A DNA stretch of 64,000 bases from an uncultured delta proteobacterium (GTDB lineage Bacteria; Myxococcota_A; Polyangia; Fen-1088): contig CAWCMR010000014.1 of the NCBI GenBank assembly GCA_963796685.1, positions 1-64,000 of the forward strand, written 5' to 3'. Of the stretch, positions 4,637 through 52,627 are shown piece after piece; position 1 is the stretch's first letter; each line of letters starts with the position of its first letter. The translations under genes and the position numbers were made by a program. The notes under the pieces were generated by a model that searched no databases, was not told the DNA's origin, and saw nothing but the letters and a program-made list of their open reading frames with translations.

Positions 4637-5782
4637 GTGACCGAAACAGGCGAAAAAGGATCGCAGCCCCCGCTGGATTTTCCCGAGCTAGAGTCGGGGG
4701 GCGGCGTCTCGTCCGCAGACGAGTTTGCCCATGTTCCATCATCCCGGCGGCGGCATCCCGCCATCGCGCTGGCGGCGGCGGCGTTGGCGGCTTTTCTCAT
4801 CTACCAGATTCACGACGACCTGCTCTTCGCCCTCTCGCACTCCGACGCGCGCGATATCGGCGATGCGCGCAAGGTGGCCTCGACGCCGGTGGACAAGCTG
4901 CCGATCAACCAGTACGTTCGCATGTCCGGCATGCCCGATCGGGAGAGCGGGGTCATCATCGACACCGCCGGCTCGTGGCAGTTCACGCAGTTCTTCCGCC
5001 TGCTCGGCACGCGCAGTCGGGTCTTCGTCAGCCGCGTGCCCGATCCGATTCCCGTCGAGCAGGCCGAGCGGGACGTCTTCGTCGGGCGGTTGGTGCGGTT
5101 CGGCGACTTGTCCTTCGCGGCCGCGATTCGCAAGCACTTCGCCAGTCGCGTGAGCGCCACGCACTTCTTTGCGCCGTCCGTGGTACGCGACAGGGTGGCC
5201 ACCACCAACGGCGGCCCTGTCGTCCTGGTCGATATGCTGGGCGAGCAGGTTTCCCTGGCACCCACCGACGAGCTTTCGATCGATGTGTCCCGACCTGCCG
5301 ACATGGTGGTCGAGCTGCCGCGCGCCAAGTATCCCGACGCGGCGGCGGCGCGCGCGGCCGTGGAACAGCAGGGCGGCCGTGTTCTCGACGAGACGGCCAA
5401 AGCCTTGGACCCCAAGAGCATCGCCCTGGTCGTGACCTTCCCGGAGGACAAGCGCGATCTGGCCATGCACGCCCTGTCGGAGCAGGACGAACGCGTGCGT
5501 TTTCGTCCCGTGCGCGCCACCCACACGGTCCGCATCTCCGACTTGTCCGCGGACAAGGACGACAAAGACGGCTTGAAGATTCGCAAGGCGGCGGAGAGCG
5601 TCGACATTCCTCTTTCGCGCATCCTGGCCATCAGCACTCAGGCCACGGTGCAAATCCCCGACGATGCCCTGCTGTTGCGCGAGGGCGAGCGTCCCCGCGA
5701 CCAGTACAAGTCCCTCATCATCGCCGCCTTCCTGCTAGGTTTTGCCGTAGTCAACCTCCTTGCCTTGCGCGCGCGCGGATAG
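4637..5782 (+). CDS. Hypothetical membrane protein (N- and C-terminal TM helices)
   Basis: 381-aa ORF with GC3-rich codons and two hydrophobic segments; ends 9 nt before cysS. Confidence 0.7.
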   Translation: MTETGEKGSQPPLDFPELESGGGVSSADEFAHVPSSRRRHPAIALAAAALAAFLIYQIHDDLLFALSHSDARDIGDARKVASTPVDKLPINQYVRMSGMPDRESGVIIDTAGSWQFTQFFRLLGTRSRVFVSRVPDPIPVEQAERDVFVGRLVRFGDLSFAAAIRKHFASRVSATHFFAPSVVRDRVATTNGGPVVLVDMLGEQVSLAPTDELSIDVSRPADMVVELPRAKYPDAAAARAAVEQQGGRVLDETAKALDPKSIALVVTFPEDKRDLAMHALSEQDERVRFRPVRATHTVRISDLSADKDDKDGLKIRKAAESVDIPLSRILAISTQATVQIPDDALLLREGERPRDQYKSLIIAAFLLGFAVVNLLALRARG

Positions 5783-5791
5783 CGCTTTTTC

Positions 5792-7261
5792 ATGCAAAGA
5801 ATCTACGATACCCGGGCAGGAAAGAAGGTGGACCTTGAGCTGCGCGAGCCGGGCAAGGTCGGCATGTATGCCTGCGGCGTTACCGTCTACGACCTATGCC
5901 ATGTCGGCCACGCGCGCACCCTGATCGCGTTCGACGTGATCGTTCGCCACCTGCGCCAGCGCGGCCTGGACGTTCGTCTGGTCCGCAACATCACCGACGT
6001 GGATGACAAGATCATTCGCAAGGGGCACGCCGAGGGACGCGACGCCGCCGAGGTGGCCAAGTTCTACGCGGACGCCATGGCCGCGGACATGGCCGCGCTT
6101 GGCATCGCCCCTCCCGACGTCGAGCCGCGCGCCACCCTGCACATCGCGGAGGTGATCGAGGTCATCCGGCGCCTGGAGGAGCGTGGCCTGGCCTACGCGG
6201 CCGAAGGCGATGTCTACTACTCGGTCGCGGGGTTTCCCGGCTATGGGAGTCTCTCCGGGCAAAGCATCGACGATTTGCAGGCCGGTGCGCGCATCGAGGT
6301 GGGCGAGCACAAGCGCAGTCCTCTCGATTTCGCGCTGTGGAAGGGGGCCAAGCCGGGTGAGCCGCAGTGGCCAAGCCCGTGGGGGCCGGGACGGCCTGGC
6401 TGGCACATCGAGTGCTCGGCCATGGCCCACCGCTATCTCGGTGACGCTTTCGACATTCACGGCGGGGGCTCGGACCTCATCTTTCCCCACCACGAAAACG
6501 AGATCGCGCAGTCCGAGGGCGCCTATGGATCGTTCGCGCGACATTGGATGCACTCGGGGATGGTCAATTTCGGCGGCGAGAAGATGTCGAAGTCGCTGGG
6601 CAACGTGGTGACCATTCGCCGGGTGGCCGAGACGCACGACCTCGAGGCATTGCGCCTCTTGCTCATCAGCGTGCACTACCGCAGCCCGGCCAACTTCACC
6701 ATTGGTCGCACCGCCAACGGTCAGCCCGCCTATCCCGATCTCGACGAAGCCGAAGCGCGGCTCGACTATTTCTATCGCACCCTGGAACGCCTGGATGCCT
6801 TCCTGGCCCCGCTGGCCAAGCTGCCCGACGGCCTGCCGCCGTCGGATTTGGCCAAGAACGCGGGTGCCGCCATGGACGACGATTTCAACACCGCGGCCGC
6901 CATCGGGCACCTCTACGATGCCTTCGTCCTGGCCAACAAGCTGCTCGACGATCCCAAGTCCATGCCCAAGCCGGCCCGGCAAGAGACCTTGGCCGCCATC
7001 GCGCGGGACGCTCGTGCGGTCGGCGCGACGCTCGGGATCATGCTCAGGCCACCGTCGGAGTTCTTGCTGGCTCGGCGGGATCGCTTGTGCGTGCGACGCA
7101 ACATCGATCGCGCCGCAGTCGAGGCGCGCATCGCCGATCGCGCCGCCGCGCGGGCTGCCAAGGACTTCAAGCGCGCGGACGAGATCCGGGCCGAGCTCAA
7201 GGATTCGGGCGTCGAGTTGATGGACACGCCCGCAGGCACCGCCTGGCGCGTGTCAGGCTAA
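5792..7261 (+). CDS. cysS: Cysteine--tRNA ligase
   Basis: CGVTVYDLCHVGH, DFALWK, GRPGWHIECSAM, DIHGGGSDLIFPHHENE, KMSKSLGN. Confidence 0.97.
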   Translation: MQRIYDTRAGKKVDLELREPGKVGMYACGVTVYDLCHVGHARTLIAFDVIVRHLRQRGLDVRLVRNITDVDDKIIRKGHAEGRDAAEVAKFYADAMAADMAALGIAPPDVEPRATLHIAEVIEVIRRLEERGLAYAAEGDVYYSVAGFPGYGSLSGQSIDDLQAGARIEVGEHKRSPLDFALWKGAKPGEPQWPSPWGPGRPGWHIECSAMAHRYLGDAFDIHGGGSDLIFPHHENEIAQSEGAYGSFARHWMHSGMVNFGGEKMSKSLGNVVTIRRVAETHDLEALRLLLISVHYRSPANFTIGRTANGQPAYPDLDEAEARLDYFYRTLERLDAFLAPLAKLPDGLPPSDLAKNAGAAMDDDFNTAAAIGHLYDAFVLANKLLDDPKSMPKPARQETLAAIARDARAVGATLGIMLRPPSEFLLARRDRLCVRRNIDRAAVEARIADRAAARAAKDFKRADEIRAELKDSGVELMDTPAGTAWRVSG

Positions 7262-17047: not shown

Positions 17048-17416
17048 CTAGGCCGCGATGCGCGAGGGGCGGCGCAATCCGCCCGCGGGCTGTTCGGCTT
17101 CCTGCTCGGTTTCGCCGCCGCCGAGACGCGCCCATAGTTTCTTGAGCGCACCGAGCTCGATCTGGCGCACGCGCTCACGCGTCAGCGACAGGCGGGTGGC
17201 GATCTCCTCGAGGGTCATTCCCCCTTGCTCTGCGGCTTCGAGGGCGCATGCCTCACGCACCACGGGCAGGTGAAGCTCGGCCGGTTTCGCGCCGCGGTTG
17301 TCGCGGCGTTCGGCGGTCAGGTTGAATCGGCACACGGCGTGCGGGCACGGGCCCGGAAGCTTTCGGCAAGCACCACGCGTGATCTTGTAAAGGTTGATGC
17401 GTAGCTCGTCTGCCAT
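17048..17416 (-). CDS. Small Cys4 (putative Zn) + sigma70 region-4 HTH protein, paralog 1
   Basis: C-x6-C-x4-C...CAL followed by TLEEIATRLSLTRERVRQIELGALKKL; AAGGA RBS upstream of ATG 17416. Confidence 0.8.
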   Translation of the reverse strand: MADELRINLYKITRGACRKLPGPCPHAVCRFNLTAERRDNRGAKPAELHLPVVREACALEAAEQGGMTLEEIATRLSLTRERVRQIELGALKKLWARLGGGETEQEAEQPAGGLRRPSRIAA

Positions 17417-17661
17417 GGTACACGTCCTTGTCGTCGGGGAATCGAGAGTCGGAAAGTCGGTTTGCAAAAACGCGGTCACAGTTCGTTCGGCAGAAGCCCC
17501 GGCCGCCTTGAGTCGGTTTCTGTTTGGATTCGAGACTTTGCCGCAAATGTGTGAGGCAAGATACAGTCGCGGCAGTCGAGTCAGCCGTACGTCGGTTGGT
17601 TGTCCGCGGCGTCCGGGTCGCTGCTTGCGGGCTTTGCTTTCAAGTGTGGAAGCGCGTGACG

Positions 17662-48360: not shown

Positions 48361-48492
48361 TTGTGCATGCTCTGCACGGCAGCCTCGGGCAGCGCCAGGG
48401 TCCGCACCGTGGCGCGCACACATGGGCCTGCGCACATGGGCGAGATCCGGGCTGCTTGTCCTACCTGAACAAAGTAGTAGTTGTTTCATCTA

Positions 48493-48528
48493 TTGAATAT
48501 ACGCTACCGAGTAGAATACAGTGAATAC
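48493..48528 (+). promoter_or_regulatory. Putative promoter with GAATAY direct repeats
   Basis: AT-rich patch; TTGAAT-18 nt-TACAGT; GAATAY at 48495, 48514 and 48523. Confidence 0.4.
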
Positions 48529-48534
48529 ACGAAA

Positions 48535-49134
48535 ATGGAGAAGCGCCAGACCCAGTCCGCCAGCGAGACCCCGGTTTCGAGAAACCGGGCGGTCGGGCTT
48601 CTCGTCGAGGAAGAGCTGAGCGAGATCGAGCGCCAGTGGCCCGACGGCCTGACCTCACGTCAGATCGTGGATCTCTTCACTGCGAGAGGGTTTCGCTTCT
48701 CCGAGGCCACCTTGCGCAAGTACGTGCAGCTCGGTCTCCTGCCGCGCTCGGTGCGCGTCGGGCGCAAGGGCAAGCACCGCGGCTCGTGCGGGATGTATCC
48801 CGCCGAGGTCGTCCGCCGCGTGAATCAGGTGCGCTCGATGATGGCCGAGGACCTGACCATCGAGGACATCCAGCGCTCCTTCGCCCGCTTCAAGGATGAG
48901 ATCGACCAAGTCGAAAAGGGAGTGCGCGAGCTGATCGCGGGGTTCGAGCGCGAGGCCAAGGGCCCGACGCTCACCCCGGATCGGCGGGCAACCATCGAGT
49001 CCGAGATCGTCGCGGCCAAGCAAGCCGCTGGCGAGCTGATTCGGCGAATCACGGGAGTCGAAGCGAGTCTTTCTGCCCGCGCCGGTGCGTCGGTTGCGGG
49101 CACTGCCGTCGGGAGCGGCAGCGATCTGTTCTGA
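48535..49134 (+). CDS. MerR-like winged-HTH protein with C-terminal coiled coil
   Basis: SEATLRKYVQLGLLPRS.RVG..G.Y, then ..V.SMM..LTIEDIQ. Confidence 0.8.
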   Translation: MEKRQTQSASETPVSRNRAVGLLVEEELSEIERQWPDGLTSRQIVDLFTARGFRFSEATLRKYVQLGLLPRSVRVGRKGKHRGSCGMYPAEVVRRVNQVRSMMAEDLTIEDIQRSFARFKDEIDQVEKGVRELIAGFEREAKGPTLTPDRRATIESEIVAAKQAAGELIRRITGVEASLSARAGASVAGTAVGSGSDLF

Positions 49135-49170: not shown

Positions 49171-49707
49171 ATGGCCGAAGATAGATTGGTTAGTCAAGTC
49201 GAGGAGGATGAGGCCGTAGGACCAGCGGAAGAATTGCCGCAGCCCGAGGTGGCCAAGATCCGATTGAAGGTTCGTCCGTCGCGCGACGGACGATTCCGGT
49301 CCAAGACCATCGCACCCAAGCGCTTGACCCGCGACGAGAAGCGCCTGGCGATGTCCCTGGTCTATCCGGAGGACATCGAGCGACCCAAGTCGCGTGCGGA
49401 TTGCCAGAGCATGCAGCGTCCCTGTCCGTTCGTGAGCTGCGAGCACCACCTGTACTTGGACGTGAATCCGCAGAGTGGAGCCATCAAGCTGAACTTCCCC
49501 CACCTCGAGGTGTGGCAGATGGCCGAGACCTGCGCGCTGGACGTCGCCGACCGTGGCGGGATCACCCTCGAGGAGGTGGGCGCCATTCTGAACCTGACCC
49601 GCGAGCGAATTCGCCAGGTCGAGGTTCGCGGGCTGACCAAAATTCGCGTCACGAACGGCGAGGATCTGGGGGCGAGTCCGCCCTTCAAATCACCGACGAG
49701 ATCCTAG
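49171..49707 (+). CDS. Cys4 (putative Zn) + sigma70 region-4 HTH protein, paralog 2
   Basis: [14 protein letters not shown]...TCAL, then [27 protein letters not shown]. Confidence 0.85.
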
Positions 49708-49789: not shown

Positions 49790-51248
49790 GTGAAAGACGA
49801 ATTGCCCGCTGACCCCGCCTCCCTATTTCCCGCCACGCCGCTGGATACCATCGACGCCCGCATTGCGGAGCGGCTGCTGAGCGTCGCGCTGGCCTCGGGC
49901 GGAGAACACGCGGATCTCTACTTCGAGTACCGATCCTCGAGCGACTTTGCTTTCGAGGAAGGTCGCGTTCGCACGGTCGGCCGGGCCATCGTGCTCGGCT
50001 TGGGCGTGCGGGTCGTGCGCGGAGTTGCTTCCGGCTATGCCTACACCGAGGAGCTCTCCGAGCCGCGCATGATGGATGCCGCCCGCACGGCGGGACGAGA
50101 TCGCGTCCCGGGGCGGCTCGCCCGTCCCGGTCGCGTTGGCGGCGAAGGTTTTGCCCAGCTTCTATCCCGTGCGCGAGCTCTCGCTGTCTCGGACCGGGGA
50201 AGAGAAGGTCGCCCTGCTTCGCCGGCTGGACGCCGCTGCGCGGGCCTACGATCCACGCATCGTTCGCGTCGAGGCCGGTTTCGCGGAAGGCTGGTCCGAT
50301 GTGCTCGTGGTCAGCTCCGACGGAACCATGGCGCGCGACCGGCAGCCCATGGTGCGTCTCGGCGTCAACGCCATGGCGGAGGACAAGGGCAAGCGCCAGT
50401 CCGGGCGCTCGGGCACGGCCAAACGCCGCGGGCTCGATCTGTTCTCCGAACCGGGCTCGACGCCCGAGGATCACGGTCGCGAGGCAGCTCGCTTGGCGGT
50501 CGCCATGTTGCACGCCCAAGAGGCGCCGGCCGGGCCCATGGAGGTCGTGCTGGCCGCCGGCGAATCGGGCATCTTGTTGCACGAAGCGGTCGGGCATGGG
50601 CTGGAGGCGGATTTCAACCGCAAGAAGACCAGCAATTACTCGGGCCAGATGGGCAAGCAGGTGGCGTCGCACCTGTGTACCGTGGTCGACGACGCCACCA
50701 TCGCGGGCGCGCGCGGCTCGATCAACGTGGACGACGAGGGCACGAGCGGCGGGCGCAACGTGCTCATCGAAAACGGCATCCTGGTGGGCTACATGCAGGA
50801 TCGCATCTCGGCTCGCCACTTCGGCACCAAGCCGACCGGCAATGGTCGCCGCGAAAGTTTCCGCCAGCCTCCCATGCCGCGCATGACCAACACGCTCCTG
50901 CTCGCCGGCAACGACGATCCCCAGGACATCATCGGTTCGGTCGCTCGTGGCGTGTACGCCAAGCGCTTCTCCGGCGGGCAGGTGAACATCTCGAATGGCG
51001 ACTTCGTCTTCTCTCTGACCGAAAGCTACCTCATCGAGGACGGCAAGCTGACCGCCCCTCTGCGCGGCGTGAACCTCATCGGCAACGGTCCCGAGGTCCT
51101 GCGCAACGTGACCATGGTTGGGCACGATTTTCTGCTCTCCGACGGGACTTGGACCTGCGGCAAGGACGGCCAGTCAGTGCCCGTCGGCATCGGCACGCCG
51201 ACCGTCAAGATCGCGCGCATCACCGTGGGAGGCACCAAGGCGGCATGA
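49790..51248 (+). CDS. tldD: Metalloprotease TldD, +1 frameshift near 50093
   Basis: N-terminus ADLYFE..GLGVRV..GYAY in frame 49790; HEAVGHGLEADFNRK, DDEG, PRMTNT, CGKDGQSVPVG in frame 50076; extra G in GCGGGACGAG. Confidence 0.9.
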
Positions 51249-52627
51249 GCGCGGAACAGGGAAAACGCAAGATCGCCAACGAGAAAGTCTGCCAGGAGCT
51301 GGCCGAGCAGATGCTCAGTCTCGCGTTGTCCGCGGGCGCGGACGGTGCCGAGGTGCTGGTGCGTGACGGGGCCGAGCTGGAGGTCAAGCTGCGCATGGGC
51401 GAGCCGGAGCTCGTCAAGGAAGCAGGTAGCCGCGGACTTGGCTTGCGCGTGCTCAAGGAGGCCCGGGCCGCGGTCACCTACACATCCGATTTCGACGCGC
51501 AGGCCATGAAGAGCTTCGCCGAGGAGTCCGTGGCGCTGTGCCGCCTTTCCGAGCCCGAACCGCTGGCCGCGCTACCGGATCGCGAAGAGATGGCTCGGGC
51601 GATTCCCGATCTCGATTTGTGGGACGAGTCGGTGCTGTCCATCGACGTGGCCGAGGCCATGCGTTGGGCCAAGACGGGCGAGCAGGCCGCGCTCGACTTC
51701 GATCCGCGCGTGGTGAATTCCGAGGGCTCGATTTTCGGCCGGGGCGTGGGCGCGGTCGCCTTTGCGACGTCGGCGGGATTTTCCGCCGCCTACCGGGGCA
51801 GCAATGTCTCGTTCGTCGTCGAGCCGGTGTGCGACGACCGCGAGGGCAAGAAGCGCAACGGCTACCACTACACGTCGAATCGTTTCGTGTCCGGGTTGCA
51901 GGCTGCCGAGGAAGTGGGCATCGAGGCCGCGCGCAGGACCGTGGCCAAGCTGGGGTCGCGCAAAGTGGCGACGTGCCAGGTGCCGGCCGTGTTCTCGCCC
52001 GAGGCCGGCCGTTCGCTGCTCGGGCAGTTCGCGGGTTTGATTTCCGGCGGCGCGGTCTGGCGCAAGAACAGCTACCTCGCCGAGCGCGAGGGCACGGCGG
52101 TCGCGTCGCCGCTGGTCAGCATCGTCGACGATCCTCTGTTGCCGCGGGCGCCGGGGTCGCGACCCTTCGACAGCGAGGGACTGGCGGTGCGGCCCAACGT
52201 GGTCGTCTCCGACGGCGTGCTACGCACCTTCCTGTGCGACGTCTATTCGGCGCGCAAGCTGGGGCGCAAGTCCACCGCCTCCGCCGGGCGCGGGCTGGGT
52301 GGCGGGCCGCACGTGGCGACCTCGAATTTCATCCTTCGGCCGGGCAAGACCAGCGCCAAGGATGCCGCCAATGTGGCGCAGGGACTGTACGTCACCGCTC
52401 TCATGGGATTTGGATTCAACCCGGTGACCGGGGATTTTTCTCAGGGCGCCGCCGGTTTCTGGATCGAAAACGGCGAGCAAGCCTTTCCCGTCAGCGAGGT
52501 CACCATCTCGGCCAACTTCGACGATTTGTGGAAGGGTATCGACGCGGTCGCGGACGACCTCGACACGCGCTCGTCGGTGCAGTGCCCGACCTTCCGGGTG
52601 GCCAAAGTGACCGTGGCAGGGACGTAG
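51245..52627 (+). CDS. pmbA: TldE/PmbA family protein
   Basis: ATGA-coupled to tldD; GSRPFDSEG, GFNPVTGDFSQGAAGFWIENG..PVSEVTI; no HEXXH. Confidence 0.9.
   Translation: MSAEQGKRKIANEKVCQELAEQMLSLALSAGADGAEVLVRDGAELEVKLRMGEPELVKEAGSRGLGLRVLKEARAAVTYTSDFDAQAMKSFAEESVALCRLSEPEPLAALPDREEMARAIPDLDLWDESVLSIDVAEAMRWAKTGEQAALDFDPRVVNSEGSIFGRGVGAVAFATSAGFSAAYRGSNVSFVVEPVCDDREGKKRNGYHYTSNRFVSGLQAAEEVGIEAARRTVAKLGSRKVATCQVPAVFSPEAGRSLLGQFAGLISGGAVWRKNSYLAEREGTAVASPLVSIVDDPLLPRAPGSRPFDSEGLAVRPNVVVSDGVLRTFLCDVYSARKLGRKSTASAGRGLGGGPHVATSNFILRPGKTSAKDAANVAQGLYVTALMGFGFNPVTGDFSQGAAGFWIENGEQAFPVSEVTISANFDDLWKGIDAVADDLDTRSSVQCPTFRVAKVTVAGT

Follow-up and report, generated by a model that had tools for sequence, protein, structure and literature searches.

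A probable AsgB orthologue and its shortened paralog in a Polyangia genome combine a four-cysteine module with a sigma region 4.2-like helix-turn-helix

The DNA analyzed here, referred to as the window, is the whole stretch of 64,000 nucleotides at positions 1 to 64,000 (forward strand) of contig CAWCMR010000014.1 in assembly GCA_963796685.1, which was obtained from an uncultured delta proteobacterium (GTDB lineage Myxococcota_A; Polyangia; Fen-1088). It contains two open reading frames (ORFs), P0001 and P0002, and both encode a small protein in which a four-cysteine module is joined to a helix-turn-helix of the sigma region 4.2 type. Such proteins are called AsgB-type in this text, after the Myxococcus xanthus protein with which P0002 is compared below. 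P0001 occupies 17048..17416 on the minus strand and is translated into 122 residues and a stop codon, and P0002 occupies 49171..49707 on the plus strand and is translated into 178 residues and a stop codon. A first-pass annotation of this DNA had regarded the two as paralogs, and BLASTP agreed with this, giving 37 identities over 93 aligned residues (40%, E = 8e-19). The same annotation had described a common C-x6-C-x4-C-x(27-31)-CAL layout, which was recovered as C17-x6-C24-x4-C29-x27-C57 in P0001 and C78-x6-C85-x4-C90-x30-C121 in P0002, each followed by 'AL'. The module comprises residues 13-60 of P0001 (17237..17380, minus strand) and residues 74-124 of P0002 (49390..49542, plus strand), and the helix-turn-helix comprises residues 66-97 (17126..17221, minus strand) and residues 130-167 (49558..49671, plus strand), respectively. 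The remainder of P0001 is an acidic linker and a C-terminal tail ending RRPSRIAA (17051..17125, minus strand). An AAGGA box located 7-8 nucleotides before the ATG of P0001, together with 'CATGGCAGA', was conserved in 13 orthologous loci, and conservation became patchy farther 5'. A 143-residue version of P0001 beginning at a GTG was also considered and is unlikely, because conservation concentrates at the ATG start.

Pfam assigned one domain to both proteins, Sigma70_r4 (PF04545), which covered approximately 30 residues and profile positions 19-48 and 20-49 of 50. The match was located at residues 65-94 of P0001 (E = 1.5e-9) and residues 130-159 of P0002 (E = 6.2e-9). No other Pfam match exceeded the cut-off in either protein, including MerR-type or other one-component regulator domains, and no Pfam family was detected over the four-cysteine module of P0001. 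Sigma70_r2 matched neither protein, in agreement with the earlier statement that both are without sigma region 2. NCBIfam sigma models scored far below their cut-offs, all of them on the same 30 or so residues, and the PHROGs matches were of the same kind, being sigma-type over these residues. When PF04545 was compared with the whole genome, 43 stretches were matched, among which three AsgB-type copies (two in the window and one on contig 22) covered profile positions 19/20 to 48/49 only. In most of the remaining rows the match began within profile positions 1-7 (12-22 in a few weak ones), and it spanned 1-50 in the strongest. This partial coverage indicates that a complete region 4, composed of 4.1 and 4.2, is not present in P0001 and P0002.

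The helix-turn-helix of P0001 was aligned through 'MTLEEIATRLSLTRERVRQIELGALKKL' to region 4 of solved SigA chains, and the best solved match to that of P0002 was region 4 of T. maritima RpoD (1tty, E = 2e-5). These alignments and the PF04545 match substantiate the region 4.2-type recognition helix that had been noticed in both ORFs, which reads T-R-E-R-[VI]-R-Q-[IV]-E in the two paralogs. Its family-invariant positions were identical in the solved SigA/RpoD chains and in the group-1-type sigma factors of this genome, and the longer pattern TLEE[IV]..[LV]TRER[IV]RQ[IV]E..L.K[LI] is almost identical between region 4 of primary sigma-70 factors (RpoD/SigA) and the two proteins. The proteins nevertheless differ from sigma-70 factors in that regions 1-3 are missing and the cysteine module takes the place of part of region 4.1, which is shortened. 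Alignment to the sigma factors of this genome showed a region 4.1 helix with four residues fewer than in those factors; its remnant carries the fourth cysteine, and the other three are located in the module preceding it. P0001 and P0002 can therefore neither form a holoenzyme nor melt promoters, because they stand alone without regions 1-3.

Conservation of this architecture was evaluated with three alignments: A1, composed of 16 sequences from both subfamilies and used as the search profile; A2, composed of 148 sequences of the family, the majority being only 30-45% identical to P0001; and A3, composed of 142 sequences with P0002 as the first row. The four cysteines were invariant in all three. 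In A2, the residues E81, R84, Q85, and E87 (P0001 numbering) were also invariant and T79, R80, and R82 were conserved in at least 90% of the members, which held for A3 as well. Agreement of this extent goes well beyond chance. A P-C-P triplet around the second cysteine of the family was near-invariant. Since they are invariant or near-invariant in these 148 and 142 members, the four cysteines and the recognition helix are the two defining features of the family. A search of 1.84 billion representative proteins with the A1 profile gave 5555 matches at E ≤ 1e-10 and 98 at E ≤ 1e-30, and the best 150 matches spanned the profile, starting at the first cysteine and reaching the end of the helix-turn-helix. 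A Pfam scan of 47 longer representatives detected no sigma region 2; most of these had no second domain, and a few carried an extra N-terminal helix-turn-helix or a CCHC knuckle.

A homologue search with P0002 yielded at least 8000 candidates. Of the 201 Myxococcota genomes sampled, 126 were matched by the AsgB-type profile at E ≤ 1e-10, in most cases by a single copy. Whole families of this phylum were positive (15/15, 13/13, 19/19, 18/18, and 11/11) and others were negative (0/11 and 0/5), the positives including a metagenome-assembled genome (MAG) of Anaeromyxobacteraceae. The P0002 type is thus a core gene of the phylum Myxococcota. The combination of four cysteines and sigma region 4, for which a profile survey of Myxococcota and phages had been suggested, was accordingly found across this phylum and also in phage contigs, which are described below. 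With 13 candidates scored per genome, no match at E ≤ 1e-12 was obtained in 251 genomes from the phylum of a Lysobacterales MAG or in 251 genomes from the phylum of a Frankiales MAG. A scan of named genomes yielded mainly primary sigma factors, and eight of its loci, from other phyla, which had given the impression of a family spanning many phyla, were found on re-scoring to be RpoD/SigA genes matching the helix-turn-helix only.

The structure of P0002 was modeled by AlphaFold2 (AF2) with a mean predicted local distance difference test (pLDDT) score of 83.2 and a predicted template modeling (pTM) score of 0.65. In the model, short strands and a loop resembling a knuckle are accompanied by three helices at the C-terminus, and its cysteine module scored 89-91. 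For P0001, the helix-turn-helix scored 86-93 and the tail below 50. Foldseek with the P0002 model found no solved structure at E ≤ 1e-3, and sigma region 4 alone was aligned, over 36-45 columns at E > 0.6. A wide VIA-align search with the whole P0002 model gave one chain at Z 2.2. Complex prediction between the P0002 core and the flap segment of the genome's own RpoB, which was run without controls, gave a score of 0.00, from which nothing is concluded. The invariant cysteines suggest that the module probably binds a metal.

P0002 is very probably the orthologue in this organism of M. xanthus AsgB (MXAN_2913), judging from the published description of that protein, the phylum-wide and mostly single-copy distribution, and the gene order. 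AsgB is described as a 163-residue protein that binds DNA and of which the C-terminal 30 or so residues resemble sigma-70 region 4 and are assigned to pfam04545, and which A-signal production and development require (PMC3986340). Loss of AsgB locks M. xanthus in an iron-scavenging 'tan' phase, and some genes are up by 40- to more than 1000-fold in the asgB mutant and others are down (PMC3986340). In a table of PMC2129111, AsgB is entered as a DNA-binding protein that has relatives among the delta-proteobacteria, and a 2026 preprint still refers to it as 'likely a transcription factor'. Each of these properties has a counterpart in P0002, which is likewise a small stand-alone protein (178 residues compared with 163) of myxobacterial occurrence whose C-terminal 30 residues or so match pfam04545; AsgB is regarded as a DNA-binding transcription factor, a description that also suits P0002. 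The gene order also corresponds, as MXAN_2912 lies upstream of AsgB in the same direction and possibly in the same operon, with the start codons 279 + 288 = 567 bp apart, and P0002 is preceded by a co-directional gene whose start lies 636 bp away, again possibly in a shared operon. The available excerpts of the AsgB descriptions (PMC3986340, PMC4320627, and the 2026 preprint) make no mention of four cysteines, a MerR-like partner, or phage relatives. The recognition-helix peptide was found in none of the papers in a full-text literature search, and the scan of named genomes returned no Myxococcus record.

The gene directly upstream of P0002 (48535..49134, plus strand) is MerR-like (Pfam MerR_1, E = 9e-5). 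Its ORF opens at a TTG at 48481, and the likely start is the ATG at 48535, which is directly preceded by a leader (48460-48534) that is strikingly AT-rich in an otherwise GC-rich genome. A MerR-like gene was observed directly upstream of the AsgB gene in 9 of 23 loci tested, including that of the Anaeromyxobacteraceae MAG, and a profile built from eight of these upstream genes, with that of L029 excluded as incomplete at the end of its locus, found all nine. A tandem arrangement was seen in another genome of the same class (L009; contig 312 of G145), where two AsgB-type genes lie at 732-1899 and 1958-2507 on the minus strand. A MerR-like match at 601-1252 is on the same strand as this tandem, with positions counted relative to the strand. 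On the 3' side of P0002, genes for TldD- and PmbA-type metallopeptidases follow on the same strand (49790-52627).

P0001 appears to be a diverged and shortened paralog of AsgB with a narrow distribution, and in this respect a new element. It has the core architecture in common with AsgB, and according to A1 it has lost the acidic and proline-rich N-terminus, the first helix, and a 26-residue stretch before the first cysteine, keeping a short N-terminal strand-like piece (RINLYKI compared with RFRSKTI), the cysteine module, and the helix-turn-helix. Its 122 residues are thus without most of the N-terminal part of AsgB. A further difference is the absence of an upstream partner gene of the MerR-like kind, the upstream gene being LPG-synthase-like and separated by a 245-nucleotide gap. 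Among 195 candidates, 172 homologues of P0001 were obtained at E ≤ 1e-3, and the 120 listed are 68-96% identical to it, nearly all 110-126 residues long, and of soil-type metagenomic origin. Where a source name was given, which was rarely the case, it read 'sigma factor-like helix-turn-helix DNA-binding protein [Polyangia bacterium]'. P0001 was present in 11 of 12 other genomes of its genus, the exception being a 74% complete genome, and in one genome of a second genus (G227), so that two genera carry it. The remaining 23 genomes of the family gave a weak AsgB-type match or none, and all 24 genomes of the class gave an AsgB-type match only. In all 13 loci, the gene is located behind a TypA/BipA gene and an LPG_synthase_TM-domain gene, and a lipoprotein gene faces it in convergent orientation in 12. 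The pair of TypA and LPG-synthase-like genes is conserved across the family, and the paralog follows it in 6 of 30 loci, four of which belong to its own genus (g1) and two to genus g158; some of the other 24 family loci were incomplete downstream of the LPG-synthase-like gene. The ratio of nonsynonymous to synonymous substitution rates (dN/dS) over 78 pairs of the 13 orthologues had a median of 0.14 (range 0.05-0.41), indicating purifying selection.

The tail of P0001 is a conserved feature that distinguishes it from AsgB: among the 120 listed P0001-type homologues, 107 have -AA at the C-terminus (56 as IAA and 38 as VAA), an ending that is not among the commonest of 119 listed AsgB-type homologues. 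C-terminal ends resembling -LAA are degradation signals for ClpXP, and by analogy the tail may serve as such a signal. The intergenic region upstream of P0001 (17417..17661, minus strand) contains blocks conserved in the 13 orthologous loci, namely CTnAAG, TTCTGCCGAA, and CGCGTTTTTGCA, which are located within 17417-17560 (minus strand), and the Shine-Dalgarno box as AAGGA-N7-ATG. No sigma-70 consensus match and no Rfam match were detected in this region, the fold of the leader RNA was no better than those of shuffled sequences (z = 0.26), and promoter and terminator scans gave nothing usable. A sigma-54 promoter within the CGCGTTTTTGCA block was considered and rejected, as the -24 GG was not conserved. 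P0001 appears to have a promoter region of its own, and its stability is possibly regulated. Sequencing runs covered only small shares of the window. A soil metatranscriptome contained short contigs that are 95-99% alike on 17218-17432, inside the P0001 gene, which is at most a weak hint that a close relative is expressed; these contigs may reflect DNA carry-over and say nothing on expression level or transcript ends.

A second copy of the short paralog was present in 4 of 13 genomes of the genus, that is, in this genome and in three others. The copy in this genome, which is the third AsgB-type copy mentioned above, is located on contig 22 (152496-152864; L002:1498-1869, minus strand), encodes 123 residues with 75% identity to P0001, and has a different neighborhood. 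It may be foreign, the contamination of this assembly being estimated at 6.5%. A fourth copy, on contig 13 at approximately 200.3 kb (L004:1462-1908, minus strand), has an intact cysteine module and a degenerate helix-turn-helix, ends early, and adjoins an HTH_17 excisionase-like gene. It was not explained as a simple frameshift; because no helix-turn-helix was found in another frame, it was regarded as diverged and cut short. It is probably a decaying mobile-element copy.

Relatives of this family were also found on phage contigs. A scan of IMG/VR gave 391 stretches with a relative among 595 pattern matches, many of which were sigma-like and matched the helix only. In the 39 best viral loci, 30 ORFs contained the full pattern of four cysteines and helix-turn-helix. 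Their neighbors were genuine phage genes, encoding a Sak4-like annealing protein, exonucleases, a DNA polymerase exonuclease subunit, SbcC-like and RuvC-like proteins, a primase, a methyltransferase, HNH endonucleases, and portal and tail proteins. No PHROG family describes these relatives, and tblastn of P0002 against annotated phage and plasmid collections gave no match at E ≤ 1e-3. In one viral locus (L141), the AsgB-like gene at 4884-5294 ends inside the start of a large terminase gene (5287-6927) and so occupies the usual place of the small terminase subunit. In another (L155:4032-5330, plus strand), an ORF of 432 residues contains, within a single frame, Sigma70_r2, a complete Sigma70_r4, and an AsgB-like module of four cysteines and helix-turn-helix at the C-terminus. 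ORFs of 564-635 residues in L127, L128 (3432-5339), and L145 (3645-5339) contain several CCHC zinc knuckles and long proline-rich linkers before an AsgB-like C-terminus.

From these features, P0001 and P0002 are probably metal-stapled DNA-binding proteins of the AsgB family that read -35-like hexamers, P0001 being the short paralog. Family members would be small cytoplasmic proteins formed by joining the four-cysteine module to a helix-turn-helix taken from region 4 of a primary sigma factor, and P0002 would be encoded in a two-gene unit behind the MerR-like gene. In -35 DNA structures, the Arg, Glu, and Gln residues of the sigma region 4 helix contact the bases of TTGACA. Reading of -35-like DNA is the natural hypothesis because the recognition helix of sigma region 4.2 type has been retained, and Plamann and coworkers are said to have proposed AsgB as a -35 reader in 1994. 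One common -35-like DNA word is also the simplest reading, since ordinary regulators with different targets would vary in the recognition helix. We thus suppose that the T-R-E-R-x-R-Q-x-E helix would read TTGACA-like hexamers as a free protein, without RNA polymerase, and that the bound protein would occlude or remodel promoters and act as a global repressor or activator. A metal held by the four cysteines would clamp the N-terminal module onto the shortened region 4.1 helix. P0001 would share the binding sites of AsgB but not its N-terminal part and partner, and could thereby modulate or antagonize AsgB, with its level perhaps set by proteolysis through the -AA tail.

Several observations weigh against this proposal. 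No DNA-binding site was identified, and no sigma-70-type or -35-like motif was detected upstream of either gene. M. xanthus AsgB was compared through its published description, and the name 'AsgB' was absent from the homologue cluster records, the homologues of a distant orthologue, and the protein atlas. The MerR-like partner was not found next to AsgB in 14 of the 23 loci tested, and the family can therefore do without it. In the AF2 model of P0001, the cysteine module is poor (pLDDT approximately 60), and metal binding is read from the invariant cysteines alone. A conserved protein partner could also account for the invariant recognition helix, and the sigma-factor fusion in L155 is a hint that the module acts in contact with RNA polymerase. 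A rival view, put forward in the first-pass annotation, is that the proteins are sigma mimics, whose domain would bind the beta-flap, an anti-sigma factor, or an activator protein, thereby titrating or displacing the primary sigma factor. In favor of this view, region 4 of a primary sigma factor is clearly the source of the domain, whose near-invariance among family members is compatible with a partner such as RNA polymerase, and L155, in which a full small sigma factor is fused to the module, links the module to holoenzyme function. In holoenzyme structures, however, region 4.1 supplies much of the flap-tip contact, and it is this part that is reduced here, as the match is limited to profile positions 19/20 to 48/49 and the region 4.1 helix is four residues short and carries a cysteine. 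The 47 longer members are also without region 2, and the literature treats AsgB as a DNA-binding transcription factor, at least in the available parts of PMC3986340 and the 2026 preprint. We hence consider the sigma-mimic view quite improbable, and no result obtained here favored the beta-flap competition, the anti-sigma decoy role, or the Zn or redox control that the first-pass annotation had proposed. The idea that the ORFs represent full sigma factors reduced to fragments or pseudogenes, which a likeness of about 30 residues to region 4.2 only might have suggested, has practically no probability left: length, start, and stop are conserved in the 120 listed homologues and the 13 syntenic loci, the dN/dS of 0.14 speaks for selection on the protein, the flanking genes are not pieces of a sigma factor, and the family is mostly single-copy across the phylum. 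These points refute the fragment explanation and bear out the earlier description of the two as stand-alone genes.

The four cysteines may alternatively hold an iron-sulfur (Fe-S) cluster or a redox- or iron-sensitive metal site, so that DNA binding would be gated by the iron or oxidative state. Such a sensing site deserves attention because of the iron-linked phenotype of the M. xanthus asgB mutant, which over-expresses iron-acquisition genes and resembles an iron-linked 'tan' variant according to the available part of its description, and it would suit the four invariant cysteines with the near-invariant P-C-P around the second. The spacing C-x6-C-x4-C-x27/30-C, however, is not known to match any cluster motif, the P0002 model resembles small zinc modules in its short strands and loops, and the iron phenotype may be indirect; the computations performed here do not distinguish zinc from Fe-S, and the paper on this phenotype makes no mention of cysteines. 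An Fe-S or redox site is accordingly regarded as doubtful, with a small but real chance of being correct. As for the origin of P0001, a long branch in a tree of the 90-column core set the 14 rows of the short clade apart from all 98 other rows, with a Shimodaira–Hasegawa-like approximate likelihood ratio test (SH-aLRT) value of 98. The separation of this clade from the resident AsgB clade and its position next to one phage sequence (L139) further weigh against the proposal made above. Either a local duplication followed by fast divergence or acquisition from a phage may account for this position. In the latter case, P0001 might be a domesticated phage gene, derived from a phage regulator or a packaging-site binder, with a function perhaps unrelated to the AsgB regulon. 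Phage contigs are rich in relatives, which have replication and recombination genes as neighbors and in one case immediately precede a large terminase gene; the only tree companion of the clade, L139, is a phage-contig protein with 44% identity whose neighbors include DUF2612, DUF2800/PD-(D/E)XK, and SLT genes; and P0001 is confined to one locus in two genera, with a decayed copy beside an excisionase-like gene elsewhere in the genome. Against this, the L139 branch is very long (3.3 changes per site) and its placement unsafe, no phage genes flank P0001, whose neighbors are the TypA, LPG-synthase-like, and lipoprotein genes, and purifying selection on it as a host gene is strong. A domesticated phage gene with a separate function is therefore judged unlikely. 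A bolder combination, in which AsgB-type proteins would be -35 readers gated by iron, an Fe-S cluster, or redox state, and P0001 a proteolytically timed competitor of both AsgB and the primary sigma factor for one set of hexamers, perhaps captured from a phage in which it served the takeover of host promoters, is highly speculative. If it were true, gating at the cysteine site would explain the iron-linked phase variation of M. xanthus asgB mutants.

The first-pass annotation was right about the kind of the two genes in the window, that is, about paralogous, stand-alone proteins without region 2 that carry a sigma 4.2-type helix, and its suggestion of an undescribed system did not hold, as P0002 fits the published AsgB of M. 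xanthus. The long paralog P0002 is hence of a known kind and not new, and the short paralog P0001 is a new variant of a mechanistically unexplored family. A four-cysteine metal center beside sigma region 4 is known from complexes of WhiB-like (Wbl) proteins with region 4 of sigma-A (6onu, 8d5v, and 8cyf), and P0001 and P0002 would have both parts in one chain. They differ from Wbl proteins in the cysteine spacing, and no similarity in sequence or fold was observed, the Foldseek rows aligning the sigma chains only. AsgB has been a landmark of Myxococcus development and phase variation for more than 30 years, and its mechanism is unexplored. The four invariant cysteines, the recognition helix identical to that of primary sigma factors, the MerR-like partner in part of the phylum, and the many phage relatives provide handles on its action. 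P0001 is a natural minimal version composed of the cysteine module and the helix-turn-helix, free of the N-terminal part and the partner, which could serve structural and DNA-binding work and show what the N-terminal part of AsgB does.

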